Part shown: positions 24,494-63,777 of the stretch, one piece after another
How positions within the stretch are numbered: position 1 is the stretch's first letter
Layout: each line of letters opens with the position of its first letter
IMG/VR virus record: IMGVR_UViG_3300027896_000028
DNA: 64,000 bases
Source of the DNA: a virus
Lineage: Duplodnaviria; Heunggongvirae; Uroviricota; Caudoviricetes
Direction: 5' to 3' (one strand)
Notes under the pieces: generated by a model
Told to the model about the DNA's origin: nothing
Database searches by the model: none
Seen by the model: the letters and a program-made list of their open reading frames with translations, nothing else
Position numbers and translations under genes: made by a program

Positions 24494-24569
<76 letters not shown>

Positions 24570-51143: not shown

Positions 51144-51176
51144 AGCCTGTAGATTTCTCTACAGGCTTTTTTATTT
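51144..51176 (+). terminator. rho-independent terminator
   Basis: 10-bp stem AGCCTGTAGA/TCTACAGGCT followed by TTTTTTATTT, immediately after the stop of 50831..51124. Confidence 0.7.
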
Positions 51177-51283
51177 GGTCACCTCGACTAGACTCCCACT
51201 AGCATCTTCAACGTTAGGACCGTTGCGCTCTATTAAATTGAGCTACGAGGTGAAAAAGTGATTTTTAAGACTAAATATTTGAT

Positions 51284-51745
51284 ATGGCAACTATACGTCG
51301 TTCAGAAGAAAAGGTGCTCTCAGAAGCATACACTCAAGTTTTAAACACCGAAGGCTTCTTTGATCGAGTTGCTGCTACCGGAGCGGGTGTTATGCAGACA
51401 GCTAAGAATGTTGGTTCTGGTATTAAAGCTACTGGACAAGCTCTTACTGGTAATCTCGCAGGTGCACAAGCAACTGTTGCTAAAATGTCACCAGCAGACG
51501 ATGCTAAGATGCAATCTATTTTAAAGAATTCAGCTAAAAACTTTCTTACGGACATCTTCAAGCTTAAATTGATACCAGGTGCAGAAAATCTTCAACCACA
51601 GGATGTTGATATTAAGGCATTCATCACTGCTGTTGAACCTTTCCTTCAACAGTTAAAGGCTTCAAAGGCACCGGCTCCAGCCGCACCAGCAACTGGAACA
51701 ACTCCAGCAACTCCGGCCGCACCAGCAACTCCACCGGTAGCTTAA
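51284..51745 (+). CDS. Ala/Pro-rich protein
   Basis: 153 aa with a C-terminal PAAPATGTTPATPAAPATPP low-complexity tail. Confidence 0.5.
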   Translation: MATIRRSEEKVLSEAYTQVLNTEGFFDRVAATGAGVMQTAKNVGSGIKATGQALTGNLAGAQATVAKMSPADDAKMQSILKNSAKNFLTDIFKLKLIPGAENLQPQDVDIKAFITAVEPFLQQLKASKAPAPAAPATGTTPATPAAPATPPVA

Positions 51746-51749
51746 TAAA

Positions 51750-51782
51750 TGGCGGATGAGGAGGGAGTTCCACCCCCGGACG
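51750..51782 (-). other. tRNA 3'-end fragment (T-arm + acceptor 3' strand + CCA; Ser-like)
   Basis: The minus strand reads GGGGG-TGGAACT-CCCTC-CTCATCC-G-CCA. This closely resembles the 3' end of tRNA-Ser at 63778..63871. There is no 5' partner. Confidence 0.35.
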
Positions 51783-51847
51783 TTTTTTAGGCGTCGACTG
51801 TTTAGCAAACAGTTGTGTAAATGTGACATACACGTCTCATCCAAAAA

Positions 51848-51923
51848 TGGTACCCTAGGCCGGTCTTGCACCGGCACTTGACAGATTTTAAGTCTGTTGA
51901 CTCTGCTTTTGGTCTACTAGGGC
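51848..51923 (-). tRNA. tRNA-like gene, anticodon UAA (Leu-type anticodon but class I length; non-canonical D/T loops)
   Basis: 76 nt with an encoded CCA. Acceptor GCCCTAG/CTAGGGT (G1-U72), D-loop AAAAGCAG without GG, anticodon stem ACAGA/TCTGT, loop CUUAAAA, T-arm GCCGG-TGCAAGA-CCGGC, discriminator A. Confidence 0.55.
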
Positions 51924-52012
51924 GTCAAATAAACTCCCCCAGGATTACGCTTTGTTATAGGCCTCAGGGTCACCTGATTATTAGCTTTACAAGAGGCGCT
52001 GGAGGATTAAAA

Positions 52013-52089
52013 TGGTACTCCGGGTAGGACTTGCACCTACAACATTTGAGGTTTGAGCTCAACGACTCTTCTAATTGGTCTACCGGAGC
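52013..52089 (-). tRNA. tRNA-like gene, anticodon CAA (Leu-type anticodon, class I length; non-canonical D/T loops)
   Basis: 77 nt with CCA. Acceptor GCTCCGG/CCGGAGT (G1-U72), anticodon stem TTGAG/CTCAA, loop CUCAAAC, T-arm GTAGG-TGCAAGT-CCTAC, A73. Confidence 0.55.
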
Positions 52090-52090
52090 A

Positions 52091-52600
52091 TTAGTTGCTA
52101 CTAAAATCAGGATCAGTGAAATGAACGTGACCAGTCTTGTAATGTCTACGAGCTATTATCACATTTTCAAGTTCATTGATTGCATTCTTATCCGCTTCAA
52201 CTGTTTTAAATTGCTTGGTCGCTAACGACGTAATCAAGGGTATCGCTTGCTTTTGTACACCCTGTACAAACTCTTGAATTTTATCTAACTCTTCAGGGCT
52301 GAGAGTAGTTGGATCAAGTTTTAAGTGCTCTGATATATCGAGAAGAGCATCACCTAAGAGTCTACTAGTTATATCATCTACAACAATGTGGCTAGTAAAG
52401 AACCCTGCAGCGTCTCTAATCTCACCAGCAGCACAACTAGCGGCTACTTCTTCCTTTTCGTAATACTCACCTTCGATAATATCCTCTATTACTTTAAGAG
52501 TTCTGTCAATCAACATTCGAGGTGTAATATACCGCTGAGCATACTTCATCAGATCTTTACCGTTGTATGCTTCATTTATTAGATGATTGTCCAAGTTCAT
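52091..52600 (-). CDS. hypothetical protein
   Basis: 169 aa, acidic. Confidence 0.5.
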   Translation of the reverse strand: MNLDNHLINEAYNGKDLMKYAQRYITPRMLIDRTLKVIEDIIEGEYYEKEEVAASCAAGEIRDAAGFFTSHIVVDDITSRLLGDALLDISEHLKLDPTTLSPEELDKIQEFVQGVQKQAIPLITSLATKQFKTVEADKNAINELENVIIARRHYKTGHVHFTDPDFSSN

Positions 52601-52619
52601 AATATTATTTAGGCAAAAG

Positions 52620-52675
52620 TGGTCCTCCCAGCGAGACTCACACTCGCAACCTAGCCCTTATCGAGGGGTAGCTCT
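52620..52675 (-). other. tRNA 3' half (class II: anticodon-stem 3' strand, long variable arm, T-arm, acceptor, CCA)
   Basis: The minus strand reads GAGCT-ACCCCTCGATAAGGGCTAGG-GCGAG-TGTGAGT-CTCGC-TGGGAGG-A-CCA. It pairs with the 5' half at 53171..53200 (acceptor CCTCCTG/TGGGAGG and anticodon stem AGCTC/GAGCT). Confidence 0.45.
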
Positions 52676-52688
52676 ATTAAATAATTAT

Positions 52689-53087
52689 ATGAAGACATCT
52701 AATTGTTTAAATTGTAAAGTAACATTTAATTATAATGGCTCTAACTATCATGGTAAGTATTGCTCAAATAAATGCCAAGGAGAGTATAGACAGAAGCAAT
52801 ATCTGATAAATCTCAAATCTGGAGCATTAAACGGTAAGACTATAAATAGACCTAGTGTATATGCTCATTTAGTTCGTGAGAACGGTAATAGATGCGCTAT
52901 ATGCCTTACAGAAGGTATATGGAATGAAAAACCGTTGAGGTTATGGGTAGATCATATAGACGGCAATGCCTCCAATAATACCTGGACTAATTTTAGATTA
53001 ATATGTCCTAACTGTGAATCACAGTTAGATACATGCAGAGCTAAGAATAAAGGTAAGGGCAGAAAAGCCATCGGTATGAAATGGTAG
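52689..53087 (+). CDS. HNH homing endonuclease
   Basis: Track ORF 52587..53087; ATG chosen at MKTSNCLNC. N-terminal Cys4 finger, then NRCAICL...WVDHIDGNASNNTWTNFRLICPNCES (HNH). Its stop overlaps the 3' end of the tRNA at 53082. Confidence 0.7.
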   Translation: MKTSNCLNCKVTFNYNGSNYHGKYCSNKCQGEYRQKQYLINLKSGALNGKTINRPSVYAHLVRENGNRCAICLTEGIWNEKPLRLWVDHIDGNASNNTWTNFRLICPNCESQLDTCRAKNKGKGRKAIGMKW

Positions 53088-53156
53088 TCCTGGCAGGATT
53101 TTCGCCCGCAACCTGAGGGTTATATGCCCACTGCTCTAAAATTGAGCTACAGGACC
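53082..53156 (-). tRNA. tRNA-like gene, anticodon loop CAUAUAA (UAU, Ile-like, if canonical numbering applies)
   Basis: 75 nt with CCA. Acceptor GGTCCTG/CAGGACT (G1-U72), D-arm GCTC-AATTTTA-GAGC (TT in place of GG), T-loop CGAAAAT. A sits at position 33, which is atypical. Confidence 0.45.
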
Positions 53157-53170
53157 GTTAAATTTATAAA

Positions 53171-53200
53171 GAGCTTGCTCTACAATTGAGCTACAGGAGG
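53171..53200 (-). other. tRNA 5' half (acceptor 5' strand, D-arm, anticodon-stem 5' strand)
   Basis: The minus strand reads CCTCCTG-TA-GCTC-AATTGTA-GAGC-A-AGCTC. It is followed directly by an intact tRNA and is complementary to the 3' half at 52620..52675. Confidence 0.4.
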
Positions 53201-53203
53201 AAA

Positions 53204-53279
53204 TGGTAGACACGACAGGTCTTGCACCCGCACTAAGCCGGTCCTAAGCCGACTGCCTCTGCTTTTGGGCTACGTGTCC
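53204..53279 (-). tRNA. tRNA-like gene, anticodon UAG (Leu-type anticodon, class I length)
   Basis: 76 nt with CCA. Acceptor GGACACG/CGTGTCT (G1-U72), D-loop AAAAGCAGA, anticodon stem GTCGG/CCGGC, loop CUUAGGA, T-loop TGCAAGA, A73. Confidence 0.55.
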
Positions 53280-53286
53280 ATTAAAA

Positions 53287-53362
53287 TGGCAGCCTGTGAA
53301 GGACTTGCACCCTCAATTACCGTTCCGAAGACGGTAGTGATATCTAATTTCACCAACAGGCC
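53287..53362 (-). tRNA. tRNA-Arg (anticodon UCG), non-canonical D/T loops
   Basis: 76 nt with CCA. Acceptor GGCCTGT/ACAGGCT (G1-U72), D-arm GTGA-AATTAGATA-TCAC, anticodon stem ACCGT/ACGGT, loop CUUCGGA, T-arm GAGGG-TGCAAGT-CCTTC, G73. Confidence 0.6.
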
Positions 53363-53441
53363 ATGGAGCTGAATGTCGGTAATGCTCCGACTTATCTAGT
53401 TTACGAAACTAGTGCATCACTTTATATGCTTATCCAGCAAA

Positions 53442-54077
53442 TCAACTCTTTATATATTTAGAAGGAGGAAACTCTTCGTGGTAGTGATTTACACCACTTG
53501 TAAATAAACTCTTGTATGTATCATTCTTACCTAAACTAAGCAACCACTTTTCAGATGAATAATAATCAGTTGTATCACAGGTTGGCAACTGTTTGATATA
53601 CGAACTCTTTGCCCACCAAAAATTACCTGAGTAGTGTAATCCAAAACCAGGTGCATCCTGTTTATTAACACCAACTGTATTCATCTCCTCCAAAGCTTTA
53701 AAACACTCTTTCCACTCTTCTATAAGAAAGTACTCCATATAAGCTATCCAGCTATTAACAGGTACACTATCACATTTAGTAACACCTTTCGAGTGGATAT
53801 AAAGTATATTAGCTTCTGATTCTAAGTTTCGGCAAAACTCTCTAATGTAGTTAGTTGTTAACGATTCATTAGAAAACATAACCGGTGACAAACTGATAAC
53901 CTCTATCTTCGGATGCACTTTAAACTTCGGTGCATTTGACATATCACCGTTCAAGGAAACATATATCTTATCTACTGCGTCAATGAGACCACTCGATACG
54001 ATTTTATTATACGTCTTCAGGAAGCGTTCGTGGTAATCGTTTAAAGTTGATGAATGATAAAATATGTAACTTTGCAT
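53442..54077 (-). CDS. hypothetical protein
   Basis: 211 aa. Confidence 0.5.
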   Translation of the reverse strand: MQSYIFYHSSTLNDYHERFLKTYNKIVSSGLIDAVDKIYVSLNGDMSNAPKFKVHPKIEVISLSPVMFSNESLTTNYIREFCRNLESEANILYIHSKGVTKCDSVPVNSWIAYMEYFLIEEWKECFKALEEMNTVGVNKQDAPGFGLHYSGNFWWAKSSYIKQLPTCDTTDYYSSEKWLLSLGKNDTYKSLFTSGVNHYHEEFPPSKYIKS

Positions 54078-54131
54078 ATGGTTATTTTATAACATCTCTA
54101 TTTGTTATCAACTTTAATAAATGGCGGGAAA

Positions 54132-54392
54132 TTAATCAGGTTCAATGAATGATAAATCGTTTTGAAACCAAGATTCACCTTCATGATGTTTACAGCACTT
54201 ATTTGAGCAATAACCCCACCAATCTCCTTCATATTGAGGATGATCTTTGGTATCCCAATTACAGCAAACATGGATGATAGGCCAACCACAATCTTTGCAA
54301 TGTATACCTTCTGAAATTTCTATCGTCTCTGTGCTAGTTTTATATTTCAACTTATGCATAAATGGTGGGAATGATAGGATTTGCACATACAC
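54132..54392 (-). CDS. Cys/His-rich small protein
   Basis: 86 aa with CKDCGW...HVCCNW...CSNKCCKHHEG. Confidence 0.4.
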   Translation of the reverse strand: MYVQILSFPPFMHKLKYKTSTETIEISEGIHCKDCGWPIIHVCCNWDTKDHPQYEGDWWGYCSNKCCKHHEGESWFQNDLSFIEPD

Positions 54393-54446
54393 TGTTTACC
54401 TCCTCAAGGTAACGTCTCCTGCTAGTTGGACTACATTCCCGTAAAT

Positions 54447-54523
54447 TGGTGCGCTCGGAGGTAGTTGCAACCTCACCATATCCGGTTAAGAGCCGGGTGC
54501 CGGTCTACTGTAGCTTCAGGCGC
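54447..54523 (-). tRNA. tRNA-like element (anticodon loop CUCUUAA, CUU Lys-like); poor D-arm
   Basis: Ends in ACCA. T-arm GAGGT-TGCAACT-ACCTC, anticodon stem CCGG/CCGG, acceptor with one mismatch. The D-arm cannot be folded canonically. Confidence 0.3.
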
Positions 54524-54529
54524 ATTAAA

Positions 54530-54952
54530 TTATAACGACGATATACTCTGCGATAAGGCTGATTGTTTAAATGCTTCCATCTCTTCTTTGCTTGGTCGCA
54601 CTTCGACTCTTTCAGTCTTAAATTCTAGGTTAATAGACATATCAACATCAGAACCATCCAATGCTTTGATAGTCTTACCTTTAACAGGTCTCTCGTAAAC
54701 ACATTGCATATAGAAGACTTTGCCCATCTTCTTTGGTTTGATATCATCTAGTTGTTTACCTATCTCGAGCTGCTCTGTAAACCACTTATCACCGTCACGC
54801 ATTTCTTTCGGGCGCCCATTAGAAAAGTGAGCATTGAAGTATTCGAGGAGTTCTTCCTTTGTACCGACTAATATTTCAGCTTTTTGTATCATGGAATCAA
54901 TATAACAGATAAAGATATAAATGCAACTGAAGTTTAGAAATGGTCGCAGCAC
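54530..54952 (-). CDS. hypothetical protein
   Basis: 140 aa. GTG start, N-terminal hydrophobic segment. Confidence 0.45.
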   Translation of the reverse strand: MLRPFLNFSCIYIFICYIDSMIQKAEILVGTKEELLEYFNAHFSNGRPKEMRDGDKWFTEQLEIGKQLDDIKPKKMGKVFYMQCVYERPVKGKTIKALDGSDVDMSINLEFKTERVEVRPSKEEMEAFKQSALSQSISSL

Positions 54953-55015
54953 CCGGTGCTACCCCGGACTGAACTGGCTTATGAAACCTGCTCGATCGTT
55001 GGATCTACTGCGAAA

Positions 55016-55090
55016 TGGAGCCACCAGAAGGATATGCACCTTCCTGTCTGACTTACCAAGTCAGTTCATCGCTGTCTATGAGTTGGCGGC
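55016..55090 (-). tRNA. tRNA-Thr (anticodon GGU), non-canonical D/T loops
   Basis: 75 nt with CCA. Acceptor GCCGCCA/TGGTGGC, D-arm TCAT-AGACAGCG-ATGA, anticodon stem CTGAC/GTCAG, loop UUGGUAA, T-arm GAAGG-TGCATAT-CCTTC, U73. Confidence 0.6.
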
Positions 55091-55097
55091 GTTGTGA

Positions 55098-55499
55098 TTA
55101 ACAATTAATCAAATCAATATTCTGATCACCTGCAATGTTTACCAACCCGTTATCACCTGCGATGTTAAACAACTGACATGAATCACCAGGTGTTGGAGTA
55201 GGTGTTGGGGTAGGTGTGATCTCTGTCGGTGTCGGAGTCGGCAAAATCTCTGTCGGTGTTGGTGTGATCTCTGTCGGTGTCGGAGTCGGCAAAATCTCTG
55301 TCGGTGTTGGTGTGGTACCTGGTGTGGGTGGAACGTACAAGGTATGGCCTACTGTAGTAGCAGATGTGTTAGATATCTTAGGTTGTATACCTCTTGCTCT
55401 TCCACCAGCTCGCACTGATGCCGCTGCAGCTATTCTCGCCTCTGAACGCGTAGCTCTTGCTATTCTAATACTATCAAATTGTGATGGTGACTGTGCCAT
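55098..55499 (-). CDS. Pro/Thr-repeat protein
   Basis: 133 aa with TPTPTEILPTPTPTEITP tandem repeats. Encoded by a perfect 2 x 48-bp DNA tandem duplication. Confidence 0.5.
   Translation of the reverse strand: MAQSPSQFDSIRIARATRSEARIAAAASVRAGGRARGIQPKISNTSATTVGHTLYVPPTPGTTPTPTEILPTPTPTEITPTPTEILPTPTPTEITPTPTPTPTPGDSCQLFNIAGDNGLVNIAGDQNIDLINC
55213..55308. repeat. perfect 48-bp tandem duplication (2 copies)
   Basis: ggtgtgatctctgtcggtgtcggagtcggcaaaatctctgtcggtgtt occurs twice, back to back. Confidence 0.8.
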
Positions 55500-55518
55500 A
55501 CATATATTTATCTAAAAC

Positions 55519-55592
55519 TGGAGCTCAGTATTGGATTTGATCCGTCGTTTCAGTCTTACCAAGACCGTGTTCTGCTATTGAACTAACAAGGC
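55519..55592 (-). other. chimeric tRNA-like element (Thr-GGU-like 5' two-thirds + unrelated T-arm/acceptor 3' end with CCA)
   Basis: The 5' part is GCCTTGT-TA-GTTC-AATAGCA-GAAC-A-CGGTC-UUGGUAA-GACTG. The 3' part GGATCAAATCCAATACTGAGC-T-CCA does not pair with the 5' acceptor strand. Confidence 0.35.
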
Positions 55593-55595
55593 AAA

Positions 55596-55624
55596 TGGAG
55601 CTCAATATTGGATTTGCACCAATG
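55596..55624 (-). other. tRNA 3'-end fragment (T-arm ATTGG-TGCAAAT-CCAAT + acceptor 3' strand ATTGAGC + U + CCA)
   Basis: A direct repeat of the 3' end of the chimera. There is no 5' partner adjacent. Confidence 0.35.
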
Positions 55625-55655
55625 AATAATCGTTTTGAGTTCATTAAATAATTAT

Positions 55656-56435
55656 ATGACACAAAAAACAGGTATTTATACTAATTGTAAGCAATGTAAT
55701 AAGTCTATATATGTTACAAGAGGTGCAGCGAAGAAACGTCAAAATCATTTTTGTTCGCAGACATGCTCAGCAAAATACAATAACGCGCATAGAGCACCTA
55801 TGACAAGCAAGCAGAAGCAACAGAGATCAGATACCCTACGCAAATTTCATGGATTGCCTACACGAATATTGACACAACCAATTATGCCACTCGAACATCG
55901 ACTTAGTATATCTCGTGCTCACAGGGAAGGTAAGATTATGCAAAAGGAATATACTTGTAAGGTGTGCAATCAACTATTCATTTCACATAGGCAAGGCAAG
56001 GCATATTTTCCTACTGTTTGTTCAGATGAATGTCGCGGGCAACAATTAATTAAAAACGCGCACGGATGTAGATACATCTATAAAAACACCCATATGCAAT
56101 CTAGCTGGGAAGTTAGTATTGCAAAATTTCTTGATGAACAAGGTATAGAGTGGGTACGCCCTAAGTGTATACCTTACAAATATCTAGATGGAAAGATGAG
56201 AAATTATTTTGCTGATTTTTTTATACCATCTCTTAATTTATATGTAGATCCTAAAAATCCGATAATTGCCCGCATTCAAAAGGATAAGCTTCTTATTTTA
56301 GAAAAACAGATTGATCTTATCTATGGTACGGTGGATTTTCTCAAACAAGAAATACTTAAACGGGTTAAGAAGATGGAGCTAGGTGTCGGTGCTGCCCCGA
56401 CTAACTTCCGCTTTGCAGGCGGTGCCGTTTGCTGA
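55656..56435 (+). CDS. putative homing endonuclease (N-terminal Zn fingers + C-terminal Vsr/DUF559-like PD-(D/E)xK domain)
   Basis: Track ORF 55635..56435 (TTG start); ATG at MTQKTGIY chosen. It shares the upstream leader TTAAATAATTATATG with the HNH gene at 52689. The motif YFADFFIP...LYVDPKNP resembles the Vsr-like nuclease core. The C-terminal 20 codons run antisense through a tRNA. Confidence 0.55.
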   Translation: MTQKTGIYTNCKQCNKSIYVTRGAAKKRQNHFCSQTCSAKYNNAHRAPMTSKQKQQRSDTLRKFHGLPTRILTQPIMPLEHRLSISRAHREGKIMQKEYTCKVCNQLFISHRQGKAYFPTVCSDECRGQQLIKNAHGCRYIYKNTHMQSSWEVSIAKFLDEQGIEWVRPKCIPYKYLDGKMRNYFADFFIPSLNLYVDPKNPIIARIQKDKLLILEKQIDLIYGTVDFLKQEILKRVKKMELGVGAAPTNFRFAGGAVC

Positions 56436-56449
56436 TTCGGTAACCTAGC
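56374..56449 (-). tRNA. tRNA-Cys (anticodon GCA), non-canonical T-loop
   Basis: 76 nt with CCA. Acceptor GCTAGGT/ACCTAGC (perfect), U8 A9, anticodon stem CCGC/GCGG, loop CUGCAAA, T-arm GTCGG-GGCAGCA-CCGAC, U73. Confidence 0.5.
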
Positions 56450-56550
56450 TTAAGACGAGTCCCTTAGCTTCTTGGGTAACTGAGCATTAAATGGGGTGAC
56501 CGGTGGGTAATTACTTCGATTTTATCACCCCATCAGATATAAGTATTAAT

Positions 56551-57282
56551 ATGAAGACAACAGTAAGCTGTCCGATGTGTAAAACGGCTTTCAAACAACT
56601 AACTAATAGCCATTTTAAGCGGTGTCATAATACTACAATACACGATATAAAAATACAATTCCCTAATATTCAATTAAAATCGGATGCAACATATTCATTA
56701 GAATGCAAACAAATGGTATTAAAACGCCATTTAGCTGTTAAATTTAAAAATACAGAAAAGAAACAACGAGTTATTGAATATAATTCTAATCCTAAATGCT
56801 GTCAACAATGCTCAAAACCTATTTCATATACGAATAAGCGTTATGCTGATTTTTGTTCACATAAATGTGCAGCTGTTTTTAATAAATCACATCTCAGTTT
56901 TTCAGTTAAACGTAGTAAGGCTGAGATGTATATGGAACGGTTACTAACGAAATCTTTTCCTCTTATACCCATTGAAACAAACAACAGAAGTGTGCTCTCA
57001 ACTAAATTTGAAATTGATATATTATTACCAACGATTAAACTAGCTATTGAAATAAATGGGCCGACTCATTTTATACCAGTTCATGGTGATGAGATTCTTA
57101 AAAAAATACAGAATAGAGATTTACAGAAGGTATTAGAACTCCAGAAATTAAATTATACTTTTTTTGTTATTGATATAAGTCAGTTTACAAATTTTGAAAA
57201 GACTGTGAAATATCTTGATATTATATTCATTAAACAAATTAAGCCTTTTATTGAGCAGTATCAAAAAGAAATGGTCAGGTAG
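56551..57282 (+). CDS. putative homing endonuclease (Zn finger + Vsr/DUF559-like PD-(D/E)xK domain), paralog of 55656..56435
   Basis: Track ORF 56503..57282 (GTG start); the ATG at MKTTVSCPMCK has the same ATGAAGACA context as the HNH gene at 52689. The motif FEIDILLP...LAIEINGPTHF is a D...(E/Q)xK-like core. Its stop overlaps the tRNA at 57272. Confidence 0.55.
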   Translation: MKTTVSCPMCKTAFKQLTNSHFKRCHNTTIHDIKIQFPNIQLKSDATYSLECKQMVLKRHLAVKFKNTEKKQRVIEYNSNPKCCQQCSKPISYTNKRYADFCSHKCAAVFNKSHLSFSVKRSKAEMYMERLLTKSFPLIPIETNNRSVLSTKFEIDILLPTIKLAIEINGPTHFIPVHGDEILKKIQNRDLQKVLELQKLNYTFFVIDISQFTNFEKTVKYLDIIFIKQIKPFIEQYQKEMVR

Positions 57283-57348
57283 GTGGGATTTGCACCCACA
57301 CAGTTCCCTTCACAGAGGAAGATGCTAACTATTACATCACGTACCTGA
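57272..57348 (-). tRNA. tRNA-like gene with enlarged or irregular anticodon loop (anticodon unresolved)
   Basis: 77 nt ending in CCA. Acceptor TCAGGTA/TACCTGA, D-arm GATG...CATC, T-arm GTGGG-TGCAAAT-CCCAC. The anticodon region TTCC-UCUGUGAAG-GGAA folds only with an 8-9-nt loop. Confidence 0.4.
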
Positions 57349-57354
57349 ATAATC

Positions 57355-57423
57355 TGGAGCCAAGCCGGACATTGCAGTCCGCATCCTCGTTTACAAAACG
57401 AGCGTAGGTAGCTTACGCAAGGC
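57355..57423 (-). tRNA. tRNA-Thr-like (anticodon UGU), 5' region shortened (possible pseudo-tRNA)
   Basis: 69 nt with CCA. Perfect anticodon stem CTCGT/ACGAG with loop UUUGUAA, T-arm CGGAC-TGCAATG-GTCCG. The acceptor has two U-U mismatches and a 3-bp D-stem. Confidence 0.4.
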
Positions 57424-57427
57424 AAAA

Positions 57428-57502
57428 TGGAGCCCCATGAAAGATTTGCGCTTTCCTTTCCGGATTACAAAGCCGGTGCATCGCTGTCTATGCTTATAGG
57501 GC
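57428..57502 (-). tRNA. tRNA-Thr (anticodon UGU), non-canonical D/T loops
   Basis: 75 nt with CCA. Acceptor GCCCTAT/ATGGGGC, D-arm GCAT-AGACAGCG-ATGC, anticodon stem CCGG(C)/(U)CCGG, loop UUUGUAA, T-arm GAAAG-CGCAAAT-CTTTC, U73. Confidence 0.55.
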
Positions 57503-57539
57503 GTAAAATATGCAGATGTTTTGCTAACACTTGCATAAA

Positions 57540-57613
57540 TGGTAGGGGATAGAGGTAACGCTCCTCTGTCCTGTCGGTGTAAGCGACTCGCTCTGCTTTT
57601 GAGCTAACCCCCC
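57540..57613 (-). tRNA. tRNA-Val (anticodon UAC), non-canonical D/T loops
   Basis: 74 nt with CCA. Acceptor GGGGGGT/ATCCCCT (G1-U72), D-arm GCTC-AAAAGCA-GAGC, anticodon loop CUUACAC, T-arm AGAGG-AGCGTTA-CCTCT, A73. Confidence 0.55.
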
Positions 57614-57620
57614 ATGAAAA

Positions 57621-57923
57621 TTAAACTTGGCCTGGTCCCGTATTCTGCATCTCACAATCCTCATCTCCACCTACTTCTTCTTTTGCAGACCATTTTTCAT
57701 CGGCTTCGACTGTGTGCATGCCAATAAGTTCTTTAGCAAGGTGCAATATATCCTCTAAAACATACACCGGGTCTTGGCGTTCATCATCACTATTGAGATG
57801 ATCTTCGATTAAAGAAATAATTGCTTTACCAATCTGAACCTCACGCTTCTCTTCAGGATTAGACATATTGGTTTCATCATGCTCTACGTACAATCTATAA
57901 ATTTTGTCGGAATCGTTTGTCAT
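57621..57923 (-). CDS. acidic hypothetical protein
   Basis: 100 aa, Asp/Glu-rich. Confidence 0.45.
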   Translation of the reverse strand: MTNDSDKIYRLYVEHDETNMSNPEEKREVQIGKAIISLIEDHLNSDDERQDPVYVLEDILHLAKELIGMHTVEADEKWSAKEEVGGDEDCEMQNTGPGQV

Positions 57924-57943
57924 ACTAATATTTATGTATTTTA

Positions 57944-58609
57944 TTACAACTTTAAGGCTTTATCAACTTCTGATTTTTGTTTTTTACTGACACCCGCTTT
58001 ATGCATCACTTCATTACGCTTCATAGTGTCCATTATATTATCATCTATATGAATGACATCTGCAGCGGTTTTTGTTATCGCATTTGGTATTGCGGTCTTA
58101 CTAGTTACTACTGTTGTATCAATATTACACGTTTGTTTAAGATCCTCTATACACGATAAGAGCTCAGAAGTAAACACTTCGTCTGTCACAATATACAAGT
58201 GAGATATGTCATTAAATTCATTGTCTCTATCGCGAACCCAATCATGTAGGCATACAATATTTGAATGTGAGTTAACACGTACAGTATTCAATATTTTGTT
58301 CATTGCCTTGTATGGGTTTGAACTATGCTTAATTTCATGAACAGAGCGTACTTCGTTATCATATATTACAACGGTTACATCAGTGTTCAACTCTCCTATC
58401 TTATATGAAACCCACTGTAACTGAGTCATTATTGCCCAACCGTTTGATCTAGTTCGATATGACAGTGAAGCACTGGATGTATCAACAGCAATAACCAGTC
58501 TCGATTTCTTAGCTTTCGGTTTAACAAATTTCTTACCTGGTTCAAGCTTGAGCTCGGGTTGTATTGTTTGATAGGCTTCGACTAGAAGCGATGTATCCTT
58601 ATTGCTCAT
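57944..58609 (-). CDS. VWA-like domain protein (putative)
   Basis: 221 aa. LVIAVDTSSAS resembles a MIDAS DxSxS motif. Confidence 0.45.
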   Translation of the reverse strand: MSNKDTSLLVEAYQTIQPELKLEPGKKFVKPKAKKSRLVIAVDTSSASLSYRTRSNGWAIMTQLQWVSYKIGELNTDVTVVIYDNEVRSVHEIKHSSNPYKAMNKILNTVRVNSHSNIVCLHDWVRDRDNEFNDISHLYIVTDEVFTSELLSCIEDLKQTCNIDTTVVTSKTAIPNAITKTAADVIHIDDNIMDTMKRNEVMHKAGVSKKQKSEVDKALKL

Positions 58610-59421
58610 AAATTCATTGCATCAATTACGGTACCCATATCTTCCGGTTTAACACCAGATGAAATTGCATCGTGTTGCTTCTTAGATAGCTCTTTACCGT
58701 TTATATAGTAACCATGATGCAAATCGACCCGCTTAAATTCTACTGCTGGTCCATCCATACGGTGGTTTATAGTACAACCAGCATCTTTATAGTATAGTGT
58801 TACGAATCCTTTATCATCTTTACACAATTTTTCACCAGAAACTTTGTCAGTATAACCTACTATGTTTATAACATCTGTCATCTTTTTCCAACCTGTTACA
58901 AAGTATATACGAGTTTGACCTGCACCCCGTGATGTAAATTCCTTACGGGCATATATAAATGGTTCGCCATCTATTGTACCTGGTATATAAAACGATAATA
59001 GGTATCCTTTAGGTCCTTTTATCGGGTCGTAAGTCTCACCTTTATATAGAGAAGGTACAGTGTAAACAATACCTTGATACTCAACTTTTTGATCTATTGT
59101 AGATCTATTTACCTTAAATTTATTGAGATTATTGCGTGTTACAGAGCTCAGAGGTGCAGTATCAAGTGGAAATATCCAACCCGGTGAATGCTTTACAACT
59201 TTAGATTTACCAACAGTTAAGTTGATATCGTTATCAAAGATTTTGTCGCTGTACTTTGCCCACTTAGCTTCAGTAGCAGTACCCTCATACAACATTACCA
59301 GATTCTTATTGTCCGTCTTGTTTGCGCATCTCATTGACATACGGTAAATTCTTAACTTTTCTTTTAGCAGGGTTTCTGATACGCTTTGTAGGTGTTTCTT
59401 GATCCTCTTCCTGAGGTGCAC
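58606..59421 (-). CDS. hypothetical protein
   Basis: 271 aa, basic N-terminus. Confidence 0.5.
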   Translation of the reverse strand: MHLRKRIKKHLQSVSETLLKEKLRIYRMSMRCANKTDNKNLVMLYEGTATEAKWAKYSDKIFDNDINLTVGKSKVVKHSPGWIFPLDTAPLSSVTRNNLNKFKVNRSTIDQKVEYQGIVYTVPSLYKGETYDPIKGPKGYLLSFYIPGTIDGEPFIYARKEFTSRGAGQTRIYFVTGWKKMTDVINIVGYTDKVSGEKLCKDDKGFVTLYYKDAGCTINHRMDGPAVEFKRVDLHHGYYINGKELSKKQHDAISSGVKPEDMGTVIDAMNL

Positions 59422-59487
59422 GATGGGGCACAGGCATTGCTGCTATATTGTTAATGTGCTGCTGTATCTTATTAATATCCATCATAA

Positions 59488-60870
59488 TTATTTGGTACCT
59501 TTATCTAAAGATGCTTGAGCACGTGTCCAATCCTTTGACATAAACGATTTAAACGGCTCAACGTTCTTATTATCAAGTATAGTCTTAAATAGCGTAGCAG
59601 TTATCATATTATCCACTCTATTAAGTTTACTAAAGAAAACGTTCATCCATTCTTCATCAAGTTCGTGTAGGATACCGCACATCTCAGCGGCAACTTTTAT
59701 CTGTGTTTTCTTATCAGCTCCCATCAGTCTCTTTTGAAGCTCTGATGTGCAGCGTGAAAGAACACCATGGAGTTGATCAGTGCTAACACCTTCCGTCTCC
59801 TTGGTGTTCTTTTTCAAACCGATATGCTTCTTAGGGTTAGATACTAACTTATCCCAATCGAAATGACGCATATAACGCAAGTGCGCCATAAATCTACGAG
59901 ACCATGCTGGGCCACATGACTCACCAGCAGCTATTTCAATCTCTGTCATCGGATCGTAACTCAACTTACCATTACTCGCTTTGAAATCTTTATAGATTTC
60001 CTCCATATCTTCACTCAATGTAACAAACGAGCGAGGACATGCAAACTGATTATCGAAAGAAGGTTTCTCGTAGAAATTCTTTTCTGGATCAATTTCAACA
60101 AACTCACAGATGTATTCACTAATATTATTCATTCGTGCCCACTTTAGCCAAGTTGGAGCATCTGCAACCATTATACCAGCTTTAAAACGACTGGTTAAAG
60201 CGATCGGAAGTGGTTCATTGAAATCTGCACCTAAGTTACCTGCAGCAACAATACCCCAATCATCATTCATCTTCAAGTTACCAATCTTGCGATCTAATAC
60301 TAACTGAAATAGCGCCTTTTGTACAGCTTGGTGACCTTGATTTATTTCATCAAGGAAAAGCATACCAGATGAAGAAGGTATACCCATGATATATGCATAA
60401 AGCTGTGGCTTCATCTCGAGATATTCCTTCCTGCTTCTGATATCAATAATACCCGTAATGTCAGAAGGTTCTAACATCGCTGTGCGAATATCCCAAAAGA
60501 AGAAGTAATCTTTATAGAGGTTGTTATCGATAATATGACGCTGTTCATCAACACTTAATAATGCCCAGTCAACTACTTTACGCTTACCACCAAGTTTCTG
60601 ATCGACTATTCTTGCTAAATCGTTAGCTGATTCTTTAATCACAGCAGTTTTACCAAGACCAGGATCACCATAAACAAGCACAGATCTATGAGTCTTAAAA
60701 CCTCTGACAATAGAACGAACGGTTTGTTCAATTGAACGCTCAACTAGGTTCTTTTCCGCATGAGAGTGTGTAGGTGTATTAGTATCTGGAAACTCAGAGA
60801 TATCGATAGCATCTTCCTCTGCATATTCACAGAGTTTTCTAAAAGTATCGATTGTTTTGAAGGCTCTCAT
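59488..60870 (-). CDS. AAA+ ATPase (MoxR/AAA_5-like)
   Basis: 460 aa. Walker A VLVYGDPGLGKTAV, Walker B MLFLDEINQG and a sensor AAGN. Confidence 0.65.
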   Translation of the reverse strand: MRAFKTIDTFRKLCEYAEEDAIDISEFPDTNTPTHSHAEKNLVERSIEQTVRSIVRGFKTHRSVLVYGDPGLGKTAVIKESANDLARIVDQKLGGKRKVVDWALLSVDEQRHIIDNNLYKDYFFFWDIRTAMLEPSDITGIIDIRSRKEYLEMKPQLYAYIMGIPSSSGMLFLDEINQGHQAVQKALFQLVLDRKIGNLKMNDDWGIVAAGNLGADFNEPLPIALTSRFKAGIMVADAPTWLKWARMNNISEYICEFVEIDPEKNFYEKPSFDNQFACPRSFVTLSEDMEEIYKDFKASNGKLSYDPMTEIEIAAGESCGPAWSRRFMAHLRYMRHFDWDKLVSNPKKHIGLKKNTKETEGVSTDQLHGVLSRCTSELQKRLMGADKKTQIKVAAEMCGILHELDEEWMNVFFSKLNRVDNMITATLFKTILDNKNVEPFKSFMSKDWTRAQASLDKGTK

Positions 60871-60874
60871 ATAT

Positions 60875-62254
60875 TTATTTAATGTCGATAAGAAAGGTTT
60901 TGAGTCTAGTTTCAGGTTGTAGAGTTTTAATACCTTCCGCTGTGGTAACTAATGCAAAGTTCTTTGTCGGTGGTGGTAATAGATTAATAGGTGGATGCTC
61001 GACAAAACCGTCAGTTATATAAACAACTGCAGTAGCCTGCTTTTCTAGTTTATTCTTTCTAAGATATTCAGCTACCGACCCCATTGTAGTTCCACCACTC
61101 CTGAGATTGTTTAAAATAGTTTGTAACAACGTTGGAGCAGTACCTTTAGTTACGTTGATATGATAGTAAGCAACGTCATGCCACAACACTATGCATATGT
61201 TAGCTTGAGGGTAATGCCTGAAGACGTTAAGAGTTTCTGTGACAAAAGCTGAGAGTTCTTGTTGACCGATAGAACCTGAGGTATCGATAGCGATCACAAT
61301 GGGCGGTAAAATATCTTCATTGTGCATCTTTGGTAATATAACACCAGCTGCAAGAGGTCTCTTAGCAAATTTTCGCTGATCGTATCTTGCAACCGTCTGC
61401 ACTATAATCTGTTTCAACACAACTCGCCAATCAACGCGAGGTTTATGGATATCCATGATGTGTTCTCTCATGCCGCCTTCACCAGTACCTCGCTGTTTAC
61501 CCCTTCCAGCATCTTCATCATTTTTAGATGATTGGCTAGCTTGGCTAACCGCACGTCTAATATCATCAGCAGATTTATTACCAATTTCACCATCAACAAT
61601 AACGATCGGGGTACCGTCATTTGTTTTTCCTGGTGTACCCAGGACAATATCGAGAGGTGCAACTGCATTAAACTTCATTTGCTTATCAAGAATTTTATAC
61701 AAATATTCTGCACTCTTATTGCTAACGTCTATAGATACTGCCTTACCTGATGCTGTTAGCTTTGAATTTAACACAACCTTAGCTGTAGCACCATTGTTAC
61801 TCATTACAGGTATACAGCCCGCAGATGGCAGTTTAAAACCATTGCGGAGTAGGTCTCGGTTCATAATGAAATCTGTAGCAATATTCCACAACTGGTGGTG
61901 ACGACCCTTCTTGCGATCAGATGTCATTGTTGCAATGTGAGATGCTTCATGAGCAAGTACACCTATGCATTCGTCAAAATCTAAAAATTCAAGAGCGAAT
62001 CGAGGATTTATATAAATGTTACCTTGGGTATCAACTGCCATTGTTGGTAAACTATAGGTAGTTACTACGTTAAGCTTCTGTAGAAAGTGACCTAGAAATG
62101 GTGCATGTTTATAGATTTGAAACTTAGAACCCTTTAATCTAAGTCTAAACTTATCTTCCTGTTCTGGTGTAAGTGGTACCGACATCTCGTCGTAATTAAG
62201 CTCACGCTTAGAAGCTTCAGTCAAAATATTCGCAACTGTGTCGTTAAATTTCAC
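60875..62254 (-). CDS. zinc-metallopeptidase (HExxH) + VWA domain protein (DUF2201-like partner of MoxR ATPases)
   Basis: 459 aa. VLAHEASHIATM is an HExxH motif. The C-terminal VIAIDTSGSIGQQEL is a VWA MIDAS motif. GTG start. The antisense ORF 61455..61901 is rejected. Confidence 0.65.
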   Translation of the reverse strand: MKFNDTVANILTEASKRELNYDEMSVPLTPEQEDKFRLRLKGSKFQIYKHAPFLGHFLQKLNVVTTYSLPTMAVDTQGNIYINPRFALEFLDFDECIGVLAHEASHIATMTSDRKKGRHHQLWNIATDFIMNRDLLRNGFKLPSAGCIPVMSNNGATAKVVLNSKLTASGKAVSIDVSNKSAEYLYKILDKQMKFNAVAPLDIVLGTPGKTNDGTPIVIVDGEIGNKSADDIRRAVSQASQSSKNDEDAGRGKQRGTGEGGMREHIMDIHKPRVDWRVVLKQIIVQTVARYDQRKFAKRPLAAGVILPKMHNEDILPPIVIAIDTSGSIGQQELSAFVTETLNVFRHYPQANICIVLWHDVAYYHINVTKGTAPTLLQTILNNLRSGGTTMGSVAEYLRKNKLEKQATAVVYITDGFVEHPPINLLPPPTKNFALVTTAEGIKTLQPETRLKTFLIDIK

Positions 62255-62277
62255 ACTATTATTTATGTCTTCTTAAA

Positions 62278-62353
62278 TGGCGCTTGTATCTGAAGTTGCA
62301 TCAGAAATTTAACCTTCGCAGGGTTATGTGATATCTATTTTCACCATACAAGC
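62278..62353 (-). tRNA. tRNA-Arg (anticodon GCG), non-canonical D/T loops
   Basis: 76 nt with CCA. Perfect acceptor GCTTGTA/TACAAGC, D-arm GTGA-AAATAGATA-TCAC, anticodon stem TAACC/GGTTA, loop CUGCGAA, T-arm TCTGA-TGCAACT-TCAGA, G73. Confidence 0.6.
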
Positions 62354-62387
62354 AAACCGGCGCTCTATCTAACTGAGCTACTCGAGC
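62354..62387 (-). other. tRNA 5' half fused upstream of tRNA-Arg(GCG)
   Basis: The minus strand reads GCTCGAG-TA-GCTC-AGTTAGATA-GAGC-G-CCGGT-UU and then runs directly into the next tRNA. There is no 3' partner adjacent. Confidence 0.35.
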
Positions 62388-62388
62388 A

Positions 62389-62580
62389 TTAAATTTTTTC
62401 GAAGTTATCAAGAGTATCCCATTCAAGCAACCTCTTGTGTGCACTATACTCTATTACAAGACCTCTAGATTCACGTTTAACAACACGGACCGTGTAACCA
62501 AAGCCTTTATGTTGAAGGACGTCACCAACACCCCACTCTTTAGGGGACTGTGTTTGTTCATAAAAGACCTTGAAAGTCAT
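62389..62580 (-). CDS. hypothetical protein
   Basis: 63 aa. Confidence 0.4.
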   Translation of the reverse strand: MTFKVFYEQTQSPKEWGVGDVLQHKGFGYTVRVVKRESRGLVIEYSAHKRLLEWDTLDNFEKI

Positions 62581-62599
62581 ATTATTATTTAGTCTTAAA

Positions 62600-62674
62600 T
62601 GGTAGCGCGTAGGGGTTACGCTCCCCTGCCTTAGCCTTGAAAGGGCTCTATCCTAACTATTAGACGAACACGCC
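62600..62674 (-). tRNA. tRNA-Glu (anticodon UUC), non-canonical D/T loops
   Basis: 75 nt with CCA. Acceptor GGCGTGT/ACGCGCT (G1-U72), anticodon stem AGCC/GGCT, loop CUUUCAA, T-arm AGGGG-AGCGTAA-CCCCT, A73. Confidence 0.55.
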
Positions 62675-62675
62675 A

Positions 62676-62999
62676 TTAAATTTGTCGAGCTTGGCAAGCT
62701 GGGCACCTGCGAAGCAGCTCAGTGTAGTTAGCTTTAACATCGTACCAACCTACATGATTAAAATTTTCTAAAACACTGCAATCTAGGGGTGTCTTATGCT
62801 TCATATTGCGATTCAACATCTCTTCTGCAATCTCATCGTGTCGAGTTTGCAATGTCTTTGTATCGACTAAGCCAGTAGAAGCATACTTACCAAGTGCAAC
62901 ACCTTTTTTGATAGAACCAATAAACATATGATGTTCTACGTGCTCACCAAGCAGGTGTTTATTGCACATTAATTTAGGATTTACATGCCATTGTCTCAT
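62676..62999 (-). CDS. pyrimidine-dimer DNA glycosylase (T4 endonuclease V / DenV-like)
   Basis: 107 aa. LMCNKHLLGEHVEHHMFIGSIKKGV aligns with the DenV motif [24 protein letters not shown]. Confidence 0.55.
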   Translation of the reverse strand: MRQWHVNPKLMCNKHLLGEHVEHHMFIGSIKKGVALGKYASTGLVDTKTLQTRHDEIAEEMLNRNMKHKTPLDCSVLENFNHVGWYDVKANYTELLRRCPACQARQI

Positions 63000-63040
63000 A
63001 GATTTAATGTATAAAATCTATGAAGTAAAATCAATGCATT

Positions 63041-63499: not shown

Positions 63500-63650
63500 A
63501 AGCGTCTTGGGTATCTACAGCTGTATCAACACCTAGAGCATGTTTAAAATCCTCTTCAGAATTAAACGTCAACACCGGGATATCTTGGACATCATAAGTG
63601 CTTTCAAGCATCAGTTGACCATCTGCGGCTTTTTTCAATTTCTTGCTCAT
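63453..63650 (-). CDS. hypothetical protein
   Basis: 65 aa, overlapping the previous ORF by 47 nt. Confidence 0.35.
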   Translation of the reverse strand: MSKKLKKAADGQLMLESTYDVQDIPVLTFNSEEDFKHALGVDTAVDTQDAFADAAAKPEVKNEKL

Positions 63651-63697
63651 ATTATTATTTATATGATATTGACAAATTAACCAATAGTCAATAAAAA

Positions 63698-63772: not shown

Positions 63773-63777
63773 TTAAA

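Follow-up and report, generated by a model that had tools for sequence, protein, structure and literature searches.

A chimeric Thr(GGU) tRNA gene beside a tRNA gene split by a nuclease cassette in the tRNA island of an uncultivated phage

Introduction

Why does a phage tRNA island contain two near-identical tRNA 3′ ends side by side, with a nuclease gene as their neighbour? The question is raised by a 64,000-nt stretch of IMG/VR virus record IMGVR_UViG_3300027896_000028 (hereafter the window, meaning the whole stretch that was analysed), whose source is a large uncultivated double-stranded DNA phage. An initial annotation, made from the sequence alone, had noticed the pair of direct repeats, a Thr(GGU)-like tRNA 5′ part between them and an endonuclease gene just past them, and had likened the arrangement to a recombination scar such as a target duplication or an att-like site. 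Our computational follow-up revealed that one copy of the repeat ends a tRNA gene, here called X, which is split in its anticodon loop by an insertion carrying the nuclease gene, and that the other copy ends a Thr(GGU) gene which carries X-type sequence in its 3′ part, exactly in register.

Free-standing homing-endonuclease genes are already known in phage tRNA clusters. T4 SegB is, to our knowledge, the only characterised homing endonuclease of such a cluster. It is a free-standing GIY-YIG enzyme encoded in the T4 tRNA gene cluster (PMC2330249; PMC13096335), its site comprises 27 bp around the conserved T stem-loop, and it cuts at tRNA 3′ ends, often just after the CCA (PMC2330249). Repair of SegB breaks co-converts flanking tRNA genes (PMC2330249), and SegB rearranges units of a tRNA gene plus segB through microhomology (PMC13096335). 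Term searches of these two papers (PMC2330249; PMC13096335) found no mention of chimeric or truncated tRNAs.

Results

The repeat consists of two tRNA 3′ ends

The tRNA island extends over 51.2-63.9 kb of the window and comprises about 24 tRNA-like genes on the minus strand, which carries all tRNA genes of the window. Three plus-strand nuclease-like open reading frames (ORFs), HEG1, HEG2 and HEG3, are interspersed among them. The number of tRNA-like genes recognised in the island depended on the finder: default ARAGORN called 9, Rfam 14-15, and ARAGORN in mitochondrial mode (-mt) about 22. A 3-nt spacer and an A/U-rich leader of the AUUUAAU type are typical of these genes, and a scan for promoters and terminators gave results no better than shuffles. 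The two copies of the repeat are as follows.

55519-55540, minus strand: repeat copy 1, the 22 nt that close the Thr(GGU) gene (UCAAAUCCAAUACUGAGCUCCA), comprising T-loop positions 55-60, the T-stem strand CCAAU and the acceptor strand ACUGAGC (both 3′), U73 and CCA
55596-55617, minus strand: repeat copy 2, the last 22 nt of X3′, an orphan tRNA 3′ part (GCAAAUCCAAUAUUGAGCUCCA)

The direct repeats TGGAGCTCAGTATTGGATTTGA (55519-55540) and TGGAGCTCAATATTGGATTTGC (55596-55617) were present as first described, with an identity of 20/22. A repeat search (family D20) extended them to 24 nt at 92% identity (55516-55539 and 55593-55616). Their 21-nt core, TGGAGCTCARTATTGGATTTG, occurs exactly twice in the window when up to three mismatches are allowed; 0.01 occurrences are expected by chance, and none of 100 shuffles contained two or more matches. 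Read on the minus strand, the copies share the form (U/G)CAAAUCCAAUA(C/U)UGAGCUCCA, and each is a tRNA 3′ end, as had been proposed, consisting of the 3′ half of the T loop, the 3′ strands of the T stem and the acceptor stem, U73 and CCA. Among the 300 pairs of 3′ ends in the island, the other 299 agree at no more than 17/22 positions. At the 12 variable positions in the 3′ strands of the T and acceptor stems, the two copies agree at 11, and the other pairs at nine or fewer. The pair is thus a clear outlier even against the generally alike tRNA 3′ ends of the island.

The copies are 77 bp apart, and the 55 bp between them contain a tRNA 5′ part only. The arrangement is not a tandem duplication of a tRNA gene, since only 24 nt are similar and the remaining 53-55 nt are 33% identical by structural position. 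We also considered whether the copies are simply the ordinary 3′ ends of two full tRNAs, the alternative that the initial annotation itself had named. Neither copy proved to be the end of an intact contiguous tRNA: default ARAGORN left both genes uncalled, and for copy 2 no acceptor partner lies at tRNA distance.

tRNA gene X is split in its anticodon loop

The island was scanned for modules made up of a perfect 5-bp T stem, a 7-nt loop, 7 nt, any nucleotide and CCA. The scan returned 19 modules of T arm, acceptor strand and CCA, all but two with an acceptor 5′ partner at tRNA distance; seventeen pair 7/7, and tRNA-His pairs 6/7. The two partnerless modules end at 55596 (copy 2) and at 52620, and each abuts the start of a plus-strand nuclease ORF. 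For copy 2, the best acceptor partner within 68-99 nt upstream of the CCA pairs only 5/7, so that no contiguous cloverleaf can be formed. A fitting 5′ half was found 814 bp away on the same strand, and the following features were defined.

55596-55635, minus strand: X3′, a 40-nt orphan 3′ part
55636-56449, no strand assigned: the insertion splitting X, 814 bp, in which a complete Cys(GCA)-like tRNA is combined with the nuclease ORF and its start region; either boundary of the insertion can slide by up to 3 nt
55656-56435, plus strand: HEG1, 259 amino acids (aa); its PD-(D/E)xK nuclease domain is C-terminal and is accompanied by two zinc fingers of the form CxxC...FCSxxCS
56374-56449, minus strand: the Cys(GCA)-like tRNA, with perfect 76-nt cloverleaf geometry, the T loop GGCAGCA, the 3′ end ACCUAGC-U-CCA and an acceptor stem pairing 7/7
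56450-56485, minus strand: X5′, a 36-nt 5′ half, GCUCAGU-UA-CCC-AAGAAGCUAA-GGG-A-CUCGU-CUUAA

X3′ reads AAACGAU-UAUUC-AUUGG-UGCAAAU-CCAAU-AUUGAGC-U-CCA, in which AAACGAU is the end of the anticodon loop followed by the 3′ strand of the anticodon stem, and AUUGG-UGCAAAU-CCAAU is a perfect T arm. R1, a covariance model specific to the island, scored X3′ at 23.8 bits (E 7e-4). The tRNAs used to build R1 score 44-72 bits, and an intact Met-like cloverleaf that was not seen in building it (54941-55012) reaches only 16.6 bits, so R1 was not used to judge function. X5′ is directly preceded by the usual tRNA leader of the island, CCAUUUAAU.

When joined, X5′ and X3′ form a 76-nt tRNA, which was called by default ARAGORN at every junction offset totalling 76 nt. 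Joining X3′, as a control, to each 36-mer of the window in turn (127,929 in all) gave six exact full-length default ARAGORN calls, one of them at 56485, and two of the six are real tRNA 5′ fragments (that at 56485, and one at 62387, a genuine orphan 5′ fragment). The acceptor strand of X5′, GCUCAGU, is the perfect Watson-Crick complement of ACUGAGC in copy 1 and forms one G.U pair with copy 2; X3′ also carries a C27.U43 mismatch. These results established that X is split in its anticodon loop by 814 bp (55636-56449). Neither the distant 5′ half nor the position of the nuclease cassette inside X had been recognised in the initial annotation. X is most likely a dead gene, and the G.U pair in copy 2 together with the C27.U43 mismatch is consistent with drift of the dead X after its sequence had been copied.

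Depending on the position of the junction within the loop, the anticodon of reconstructed X is UAA or UCA; if it is UAA, a contiguous tRNA of the island, 51848-51923, has the same anticodon. With UAA, X reads the Leu codon UUA, and with UCA it would read UGA, as a tRNA of the opal-suppressor type. The insertion has no match to Intron_gpI or to group II introns over 55636-56449 (Rfam, E<=10), and no other known RNA was found there. It ends in ...GAACUC(A) rather than in G, unlike a group I or group II intron. The Cys(GCA)-like tRNA inside it was called by ARAGORN -mt and missed by both Rfam and default ARAGORN.

The neighbouring Thr(GGU) gene is chimeric from T-loop position 56

The gene that ends with copy 1 lies directly downstream of X3′.

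55519-55592, minus strand: chimeric tRNA-Thr(GGU), 74 nt, of which the 5′ 52 nt are Thr-like and the 3′ 22 nt are X-like

Its Thr-like part, which the Rfam alignment supports as the Thr(GGU)-like 5′ two-thirds of a tRNA, consists of the acceptor strand GCCUUGU, the D arm, the anticodon arm CGGUC-UUGGUAA-GACUG and the T-stem 5′ strand GACGG. In a structural alignment of the gene with reconstructed X, the two agree at 18/55 positions (33%) as far as T-loop position 55, whereas from C56 through the CCA and the trailer they agree at 22/24 (92%; Fisher p about 1e-6). The chimera keeps normal length and register (74 nt, with a 7-nt T loop), and the X-type positions in it are exactly those that break its own T and acceptor stems. 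The spacer between X3′ and the Thr gene, UUU, is a normal 3-nt inter-tRNA spacer for the island. Thus, Thr(GGU) carries X-type sequence from T-loop position 56 through the CCA and 2-3 nt of trailer, exactly in register, and the earlier suspicion of a chimeric tRNA is borne out by the jump in identity at position 56.

The further statement that the acceptor strand between the repeats cannot pair with either 3′ end proved too strong. With copy 1, strand GCCUUGU forms 5/7 pairs, C3.A70 and U5.U68 being mismatched, and the T stem forms 3/5, so that neither stem is fully paired. Rfam RF00005 matches 55592-55522 at 33.2 bits, which is the lowest score of any tRNA in the island and lies above the gathering score of 29. 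The gene received no default ARAGORN call and was called only at -ps80; its R1 score is 23.3 bits. Neither a reciprocal product nor a displaced original Thr 3′ end (CAAATCCGTCACAAGGCTCCA) was found in the window.

A second Thr(GGU) gene, 55016-55090, lies downstream, beyond ORF 55098-55499, and differs strongly from the 5′ part of the chimera outside the anticodon loop (D7). The intervening ORF 55098-55499 (minus strand, 133 aa), directly downstream of the chimeric gene, encodes PT-rich repeats of the form TPTPTEI(L/T)P..., which stem from roughly 48-nt DNA repeats (D3), and has no family match. On the other side of the locus, a 69-nt Thr(UGU)-like gene (57355-57423, minus strand) has two acceptor U.U mismatches (GCCUUGC/GCUUGGC), and its D region is aberrant. 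It resembles the chimeric Thr gene in its acceptor 5′ strand, and with X it shares the 5′ strand of its anticodon stem (CUCGU/ACGAG); these likenesses are hints of further mosaicism.

A second split tRNA gene and a third orphan 5′ fragment

The other partnerless module, ending at 52620, belongs to a second split gene, Y, which had likewise been overlooked.

52620-52674, minus strand: Y3′, a 55-nt orphan 3′ part made up of GAGCU, a long variable region, the T arm GCGAG-UGUGAGU-CUCGC and UGGGAGG-A-CCA; R1 34.4 bits
52689-53087, plus strand: HEG3, 132 aa, with a zinc finger and an HNH-like motif (HNH_3 E 2e-4, below the Pfam cut-off)
53082-53156, minus strand: a complete tRNA(UAU) between Y5′ and HEG3, Rfam 48.4 bits, with its own 7-nt leader AUUUAAC (53157-53163)
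53164-53200, minus strand: Y5′, a 37-nt 5′ half, CCUCCUG-UA-GCUC-AAUUGU-AGAGC-A-AGCUC-UUUAUAA
62354-62387, minus strand: Z5′, a 34-nt orphan 5′ fragment (acceptor strand, D arm, anticodon-stem 5′ strand and UU; D10) that ends at U33

Y3′ abuts the start of HEG3. Between Y5′ and Y3′ the acceptor stem has five Watson-Crick and two G.U pairs, and the anticodon stem AGCUC/GAGCU pairs 5/5. Joined, the halves were called as a tRNA, and when Y3′ was joined to all 127,927 37-mers a single exact call resulted, at 53200. X and the region 52620-53200 therefore have a common layout, namely a 5′ half, a whole tRNA, an antisense nuclease ORF and a 3′ part. Z5′ is fused directly to the 5′ end of tRNA-Arg(GCG), and no nuclease ORF and no matching 3′ part were found near it. 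X5′, Y5′ and Z5′ all end in A/U-rich anticodon loops, which meet the A/U-rich leader or the first base of a complete tRNA, and such junctions suggest microhomology-mediated joining.

The nucleases share a zinc-finger module and differ in their catalytic domains

HEG1 starts 38 nt after copy 2, in agreement with the initial placement of a nuclease ORF (55656-56435) just past the repeat, and is convergent with, that is antisense to, the tRNA genes. It matches PHROG endonuclease and resolvase families. The alignment of its family (A2) shows the invariant residues E152, D187 and D198-x-K200, and an AlphaFold (AF2) model gave pLDDT values of 81-93 for the nuclease domain. The top Foldseek matches of the model were weak (best E 2e-3) and comprised PvuRts1I, Bax1, AbaSI, the R2 endonuclease, RecE and Vsr, and a comparison of HEG1 with PDB sequences found nothing significant. 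HEG1 is accordingly predicted, from its sequence and model, to be a zinc-finger/PD-(D/E)xK nuclease. It lies within a phage tRNA cluster, as SegB does, and gave no GIY-YIG hit, so that it lacks a catalytic domain of the SegB type.

Four homologs of HEG1 were detectable (32-38% identity), all of them inside phage tRNA arrays; five of five homolog contexts are in arrays. The last 19 codons of HEG1 (56375-56435, ELGVGAAPTNFRFAGGAVC) are antisense to the Cys-like tRNA, and this tail is absent from all homologs; the natural stop of HEG1 seems to have been lost or replaced at the junction between ORF and tRNA. In a 219-kb freshwater phage contig (L003), the ORF of a HEG1 homolog stops 7 nt before the 3′ end of a convergent tRNA. 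Because HEG1 and this homolog both show such an ending, a nuclease gene and a convergent tRNA 3′ end are associated in at least two members of the family. In the same contig, a distant relative, an orphan tRNA 3′ fragment starting in the T loop (5950-5972) precedes the start of the HEG1 homolog. Duplicates of this orphan end and of the Y3′ end were searched for, and none were found. Two tRNA-like units, each of roughly 85 nt, also lie in tandem at 7740-7900 of the contig, next to the end of a different ORF on the plus strand.

The third nuclease ORF lies on the far side of X5′.

56551-57282, plus strand: HEG2, 243 aa, with a zinc finger and a Vsr/DUF559-like nuclease domain; PHROG 559 and 3339

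The stop of HEG2 overlaps the CCA end of tRNA-His, and its start region lies just upstream of X5′ as read on the minus strand. HEG1, HEG2 and HEG3 have in common a start-region motif, TAAATAATTATATG (D11), and a CxxC...(F/Y)CSxxC zinc-finger module, combined with different catalytic domains. Judged from their sequences, a single DNA-binding module seems to have been shuffled among catalytic domains. A 9-bp inverted repeat with a 25-nt loop, ATGGGGTGA ... TCACCCCAT, also lies in the interval from X5′ to the HEG2 start (56491-56533). Its minus-strand reading finishes with ...UCACCCCA, and it may represent a hairpin signal or a further tRNA remnant.

An example of a nuclease gene present in one genome and absent from a close relative came from a pair of other phage contigs that carry HEG1 homologs. 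L011 and L012 are 99% identical, and the comparison (L011 2119 against L012 1991-2534) revealed a clean 544-bp insertion of an HNH_2 ORF exactly between tRNA-Gln and tRNA-His. This filled and empty pair illustrates the presence/absence principle of homing-endonuclease genes for a different, HNH-type ORF.

Searches for relatives of the locus

JGI contig 3300003852, Ga0031655_10000127 is identical to the window across 16 kb except for N's, and a Logan contig matches the window without differences up to 57535. JGI 3300003852 and SRR5272259 are the source samples. The longest contig carrying a neighbouring protein is 157 kb. A megablast search of 53-58 kb against phages gave no match, and the 22-mer had 0 matches in viral, metagenome and genome contigs. 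The junction expected of an empty site, GGGACTCGTCTTAAAAACGATTAT, had 0 matches in metagenomes, and the X5′ pattern had 0 matches in viral contigs. A pattern for the Thr anticodon arm matched only unrelated canonical phage tRNA-Thr genes. A neighbouring ATPase had no relatives in viral contigs and only 22-27% identity to proteins of a phage collection; for a 221-aa neighbour, no homolog was found among 5.8 billion proteins. The window also encodes NAMPT, a DNA ligase, glycosyltransferases and a MoxR/VWA pair.

Unusual features of the island tRNAs

T-loop position 55 is G, not U, in every tRNA-like gene of the island (51176-63871, minus strand), with the loops UGCAAAU, UGCAAGA, AGCGUUA, GGCAGCA, CGAAAAU and others, and the D loops are A/U-rich, without G18G19. 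The one tRNA outside the island, Met CAU (24494-24569), is fully canonical. The 219-kb freshwater contig likewise has UGCGAAU and UGCAAUU T loops. We found no description of this T-loop and D-loop peculiarity in the literature; the G55 loops may, for example, reflect escape from host tRNA-targeting enzymes or an altered tRNA elbow. Bacterial tRNA-Leu normally bears a long variable arm, and the island tRNAs with the Leu anticodons UAA, CAA, UAG and GAG (51848-51923, 52013-52089, 53204-53279 and 54363-54440, respectively) are 76-78 nt long and have none.

Several well-paired minus-strand cloverleaves were missed by default ARAGORN and mostly also by Rfam, namely the Met(CAU)-like gene 54941-55012, Thr(GGU) 55016-55090 and Lys(CUU) 54447-54523. 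The Cys(GCA)-like gene 56374-56449 and two long Ser-like genes (51750-51843 and 63778-63871, minus strand) were missed in the same way.

Discussion

In-register exchange and its alternatives

The split of X and the chimeric Thr gene are features of the DNA itself, and it is their origin that has to be explained. We consider it probable, at roughly 60%, that the locus is a scar field in which an in-register recombination or gene-conversion patch was laid down within a nuclease-colonised phage tRNA island, in a manner analogous to SegB. A junction in register with tRNA structure is what recombination between two aligned tRNA genes would be expected to produce. The patch would have arisen by homeologous recombination or short-tract gene conversion between the adjacent X and Thr genes, with exchange points in the shared T-loop bases (CAAAUCC) and in the shared GCUCCA and trailer. 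Under gene conversion, the unconverted Thr(GGU) would have had CCGUC-ACAAGGC and the 3′ end ...GACGGAUCAAAUCCGUCACAAGGCUCCA. By analogy with SegB, the most plausible occasion would be that one of the island nucleases cut both strands at a tRNA 3′ end and the break was then repaired; the converted tract, from the T loop to just past the CCA, coincides with the zone in which SegB recognises and cleaves its target. The cassette may have entered the anticodon loop of X by microhomology between the A/U-rich loop and either an A/U-rich tRNA leader (AUUUAAU) or the nuclease start region.

Several observations weigh against this reading. No relative with an uninterrupted X or an unconverted Thr gene was found in any collection searched, and the other contig covering the locus is identical to the window; since no related genome was found, the direction, order and mechanism of the events, and with them the mode of origin, are deduced from one genome. 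HEG1 is not a GIY-YIG protein, so its likeness to SegB would be functional only, in the sense that it may work like SegB and is not a member of its family. The chimeric Thr gene passes the Rfam gathering score and keeps G1-C72, C2-G71 and U73, and may still be functional in part. Agreement with X at 15/21 repeat positions would be expected anyway of an intact Thr gene that had these 5′ strands, and the recombination signal thus amounts to about six positions plus the in-register breakpoint. Finally, the nuclease ORF of the L011/L012 pair entered the space between two tRNA genes cleanly and without duplicating any sequence, which implies that scars are not an obligatory by-product of nuclease insertion.

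The initial comparison with a recombination scar holds in that tRNA 3′ ends are duplicated beside a nuclease gene; neither of the two forms proposed for it, target duplication and an att-like site, fits well. Target duplication would mean that a 55-nt piece (UUU plus the first 52 nt of Thr) was inserted into the T loop of X and that, as a break with a long stagger was filled in, 22-25 bp of X came to stand on either side of the piece. The copies do directly flank the Thr 5′ part, and X5′, Y5′ and Z5′ are further examples in the island of truncated tRNA 5′ fragments joined to foreign sequence. However, this requires a piece whose end falls precisely at Thr position 55 and a cut placed precisely between X positions 55 and 56, and the outcome would still have to be a chimera of normal length and register; because such an exact coincidence of register would otherwise be needed, a homology-guided exchange is indicated. 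The UUU, moreover, already represents the normal X-Thr intergenic spacer. Homing endonucleases typically leave overhangs of 2-4 nt, and a duplication of 22-25 bp is far longer. SegB leaves 2-nt 3′ ends (PMC2330249). We therefore regard target duplication as unlikely. We hold an equally low opinion of a model in which the T loops of X and Thr genes lying in tandem were the sites of unequal crossing-over or of replication slippage. This would give the order X - [Thr5′/X3′] - Thr with later loss or displacement of the distal Thr. It accounts for a junction in register in the conserved T loop, and a second Thr(GGU) does exist downstream at 55016-55090, but that gene is a distant paralog and not the recent duplicate required, and an extra step of deletion or insertion would be needed. 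As for an att site, duplicated tRNA 3′ ends are a hallmark of integrase-mediated insertion into tRNA genes, and the copies could in principle be attL and attR of an integrative element at a tRNA 3′ end. Yet only 55 bp of a tRNA 5′ part lie between them, no integrase or recombinase family appears among the neighbouring ORFs or in the precomputed Pfam list for 47.9-64 kb, and the upstream copy completes no functional tRNA, which leaves this explanation with hardly any credibility.

Recombination would be unnecessary if the similar 3′ ends reflected ordinary paralogy or convergence on common identity elements. GCUCCA is the common ending of X, the Cys-like tRNA and the Thr-type tRNAs, most T loops of the island are NGCAAAU, and background agreement is 10-17/22. 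The copy pair nevertheless stands out clearly from this background and the identity profile has a sharp step, and the six X-specific positions in copy 1 exactly break the T and acceptor stems of Thr, where selection would have kept the pairs; we consider paralogy very improbable. The split X (and Y) might instead still be functional, through an intron-like element or through halves joined or assembled in trans, the repeat then resulting from selection on a shared 3′ end. The halves of X are still mutually complementary, and X5′ abuts the Cys-like tRNA without a spacer, so that RNase P would release X5′ with a defined 3′ end. This view is at odds with the missing group I/II intron signal (E<=10), with an insertion that does not end in G and with an antisense ORF; the possible junctions also misfit the classical U34/A35 site of the tRNA-Leu intron. 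A duplex between the flanks of X has only -6.7 kcal/mol, equalled by 31% of shuffles, and that of Y -1.4. The C27.U43 mismatch and the G.U pair of X3′ have no counterpart in copy 1, as expected of drift in a dead gene, and with the anticodon UAA, X would have the same anticodon as the contiguous tRNA 51848-51923. Functional halves are accordingly a quite remote prospect. Nor do we put any real weight on an assembly artefact. The data are metagenomic and the repeats short, but an independently recorded JGI contig (L001) is identical across the locus apart from N's, a 22-bp repeat is shorter than the usual assembly k-mers, and the structures are biologically coherent.

Comparison with known systems

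The preferred reading of an in-register exchange in a nuclease-colonised island has partial counterparts in several systems. As with SegB, a nuclease gene lies between phage tRNA genes, and the segment targeted by SegB is the segment duplicated here. HEG1, however, combines zinc fingers with a PD-(D/E)xK domain and is convergent with the tRNAs, and the present cassette lies inside a tRNA gene and has a chimeric neighbour. I-Ssp6803I is a PD-(D/E)xK homing endonuclease of a group I intron in the anticodon loop of Synechocystis tRNA-fMet. It resembles the present case in tying a nuclease gene of the PD-(D/E)xK type to an interruption in the anticodon loop of a tRNA gene, and differs from it in that our insertion has no intron signal, an ORF on the opposite strand, a whole tRNA within the insert and a host tRNA that was most likely inactivated. 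In Aeromonas phage Aeh1, insertion of the homing-endonuclease gene mobE left nrdA in pieces, and the protein pieces reassemble as subunits. There, as here, a free-standing homing-endonuclease gene inside another gene leaves two adjacent, precisely complementary pieces; our case concerns a 76-nt RNA gene whose pieces give no sign of working. The att sites in tRNA genes share with our locus the direct repeat of a tRNA 3′ end, but at the locus an integrase is missing, the repeats enclose no element and no tRNA is reconstituted. Nanoarchaeum equitans has split tRNA genes whose halves are separated in the region of the anticodon loop, as those of X are, whereas X has no complementary flanks for trans-assembly, belongs to a bacterial-type phage and has its halves placed around a selfish cassette. 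We did not find in the literature a description of nuclease-plus-tRNA cassettes that split tRNA anticodon loops together with an in-register chimeric neighbour.

A candidate mobile unit and implications for phage tRNA islands

The common layout of X and Y raises the further, distinctly speculative possibility that a complete tRNA, with its short leader, and a convergent zinc-finger nuclease gene together form a mobile unit of an undescribed kind which inserts into the DNA of tRNA anticodon loops. Two cases contain a nuclease (X and Y), Z may be a third, and PD-(D/E)xK and HNH domains occur on the shared zinc-finger module. If this were true, tRNA-gene DNA would be what the module targets, and the cassette would supply a tRNA, as a replacement or an addition, at the cost of the gene that it enters; in a more extreme form of the idea, the split tRNAs would stay usable. 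Were the cassette such a targeted unit, its nucleases would form a new class, specific for tRNA genes and equipped with a zinc-finger recognition domain of modular design.

For annotation, the results imply that standard tRNA finders mis-annotate islands of this kind, default ARAGORN having missed both repeat-bearing genes, and that apparent pseudo-tRNAs may be halves of split genes. Phage tRNA clusters are now viewed as modules of counter-defence and codon supply that are moved and amplified by homing endonucleases such as SegB. The locus described here shows the reverse side of this process: tRNA-bearing nuclease cassettes can land in other tRNA genes and split them, and the conserved T loop can serve as an in-register crossover point from which chimeric tRNAs arise.

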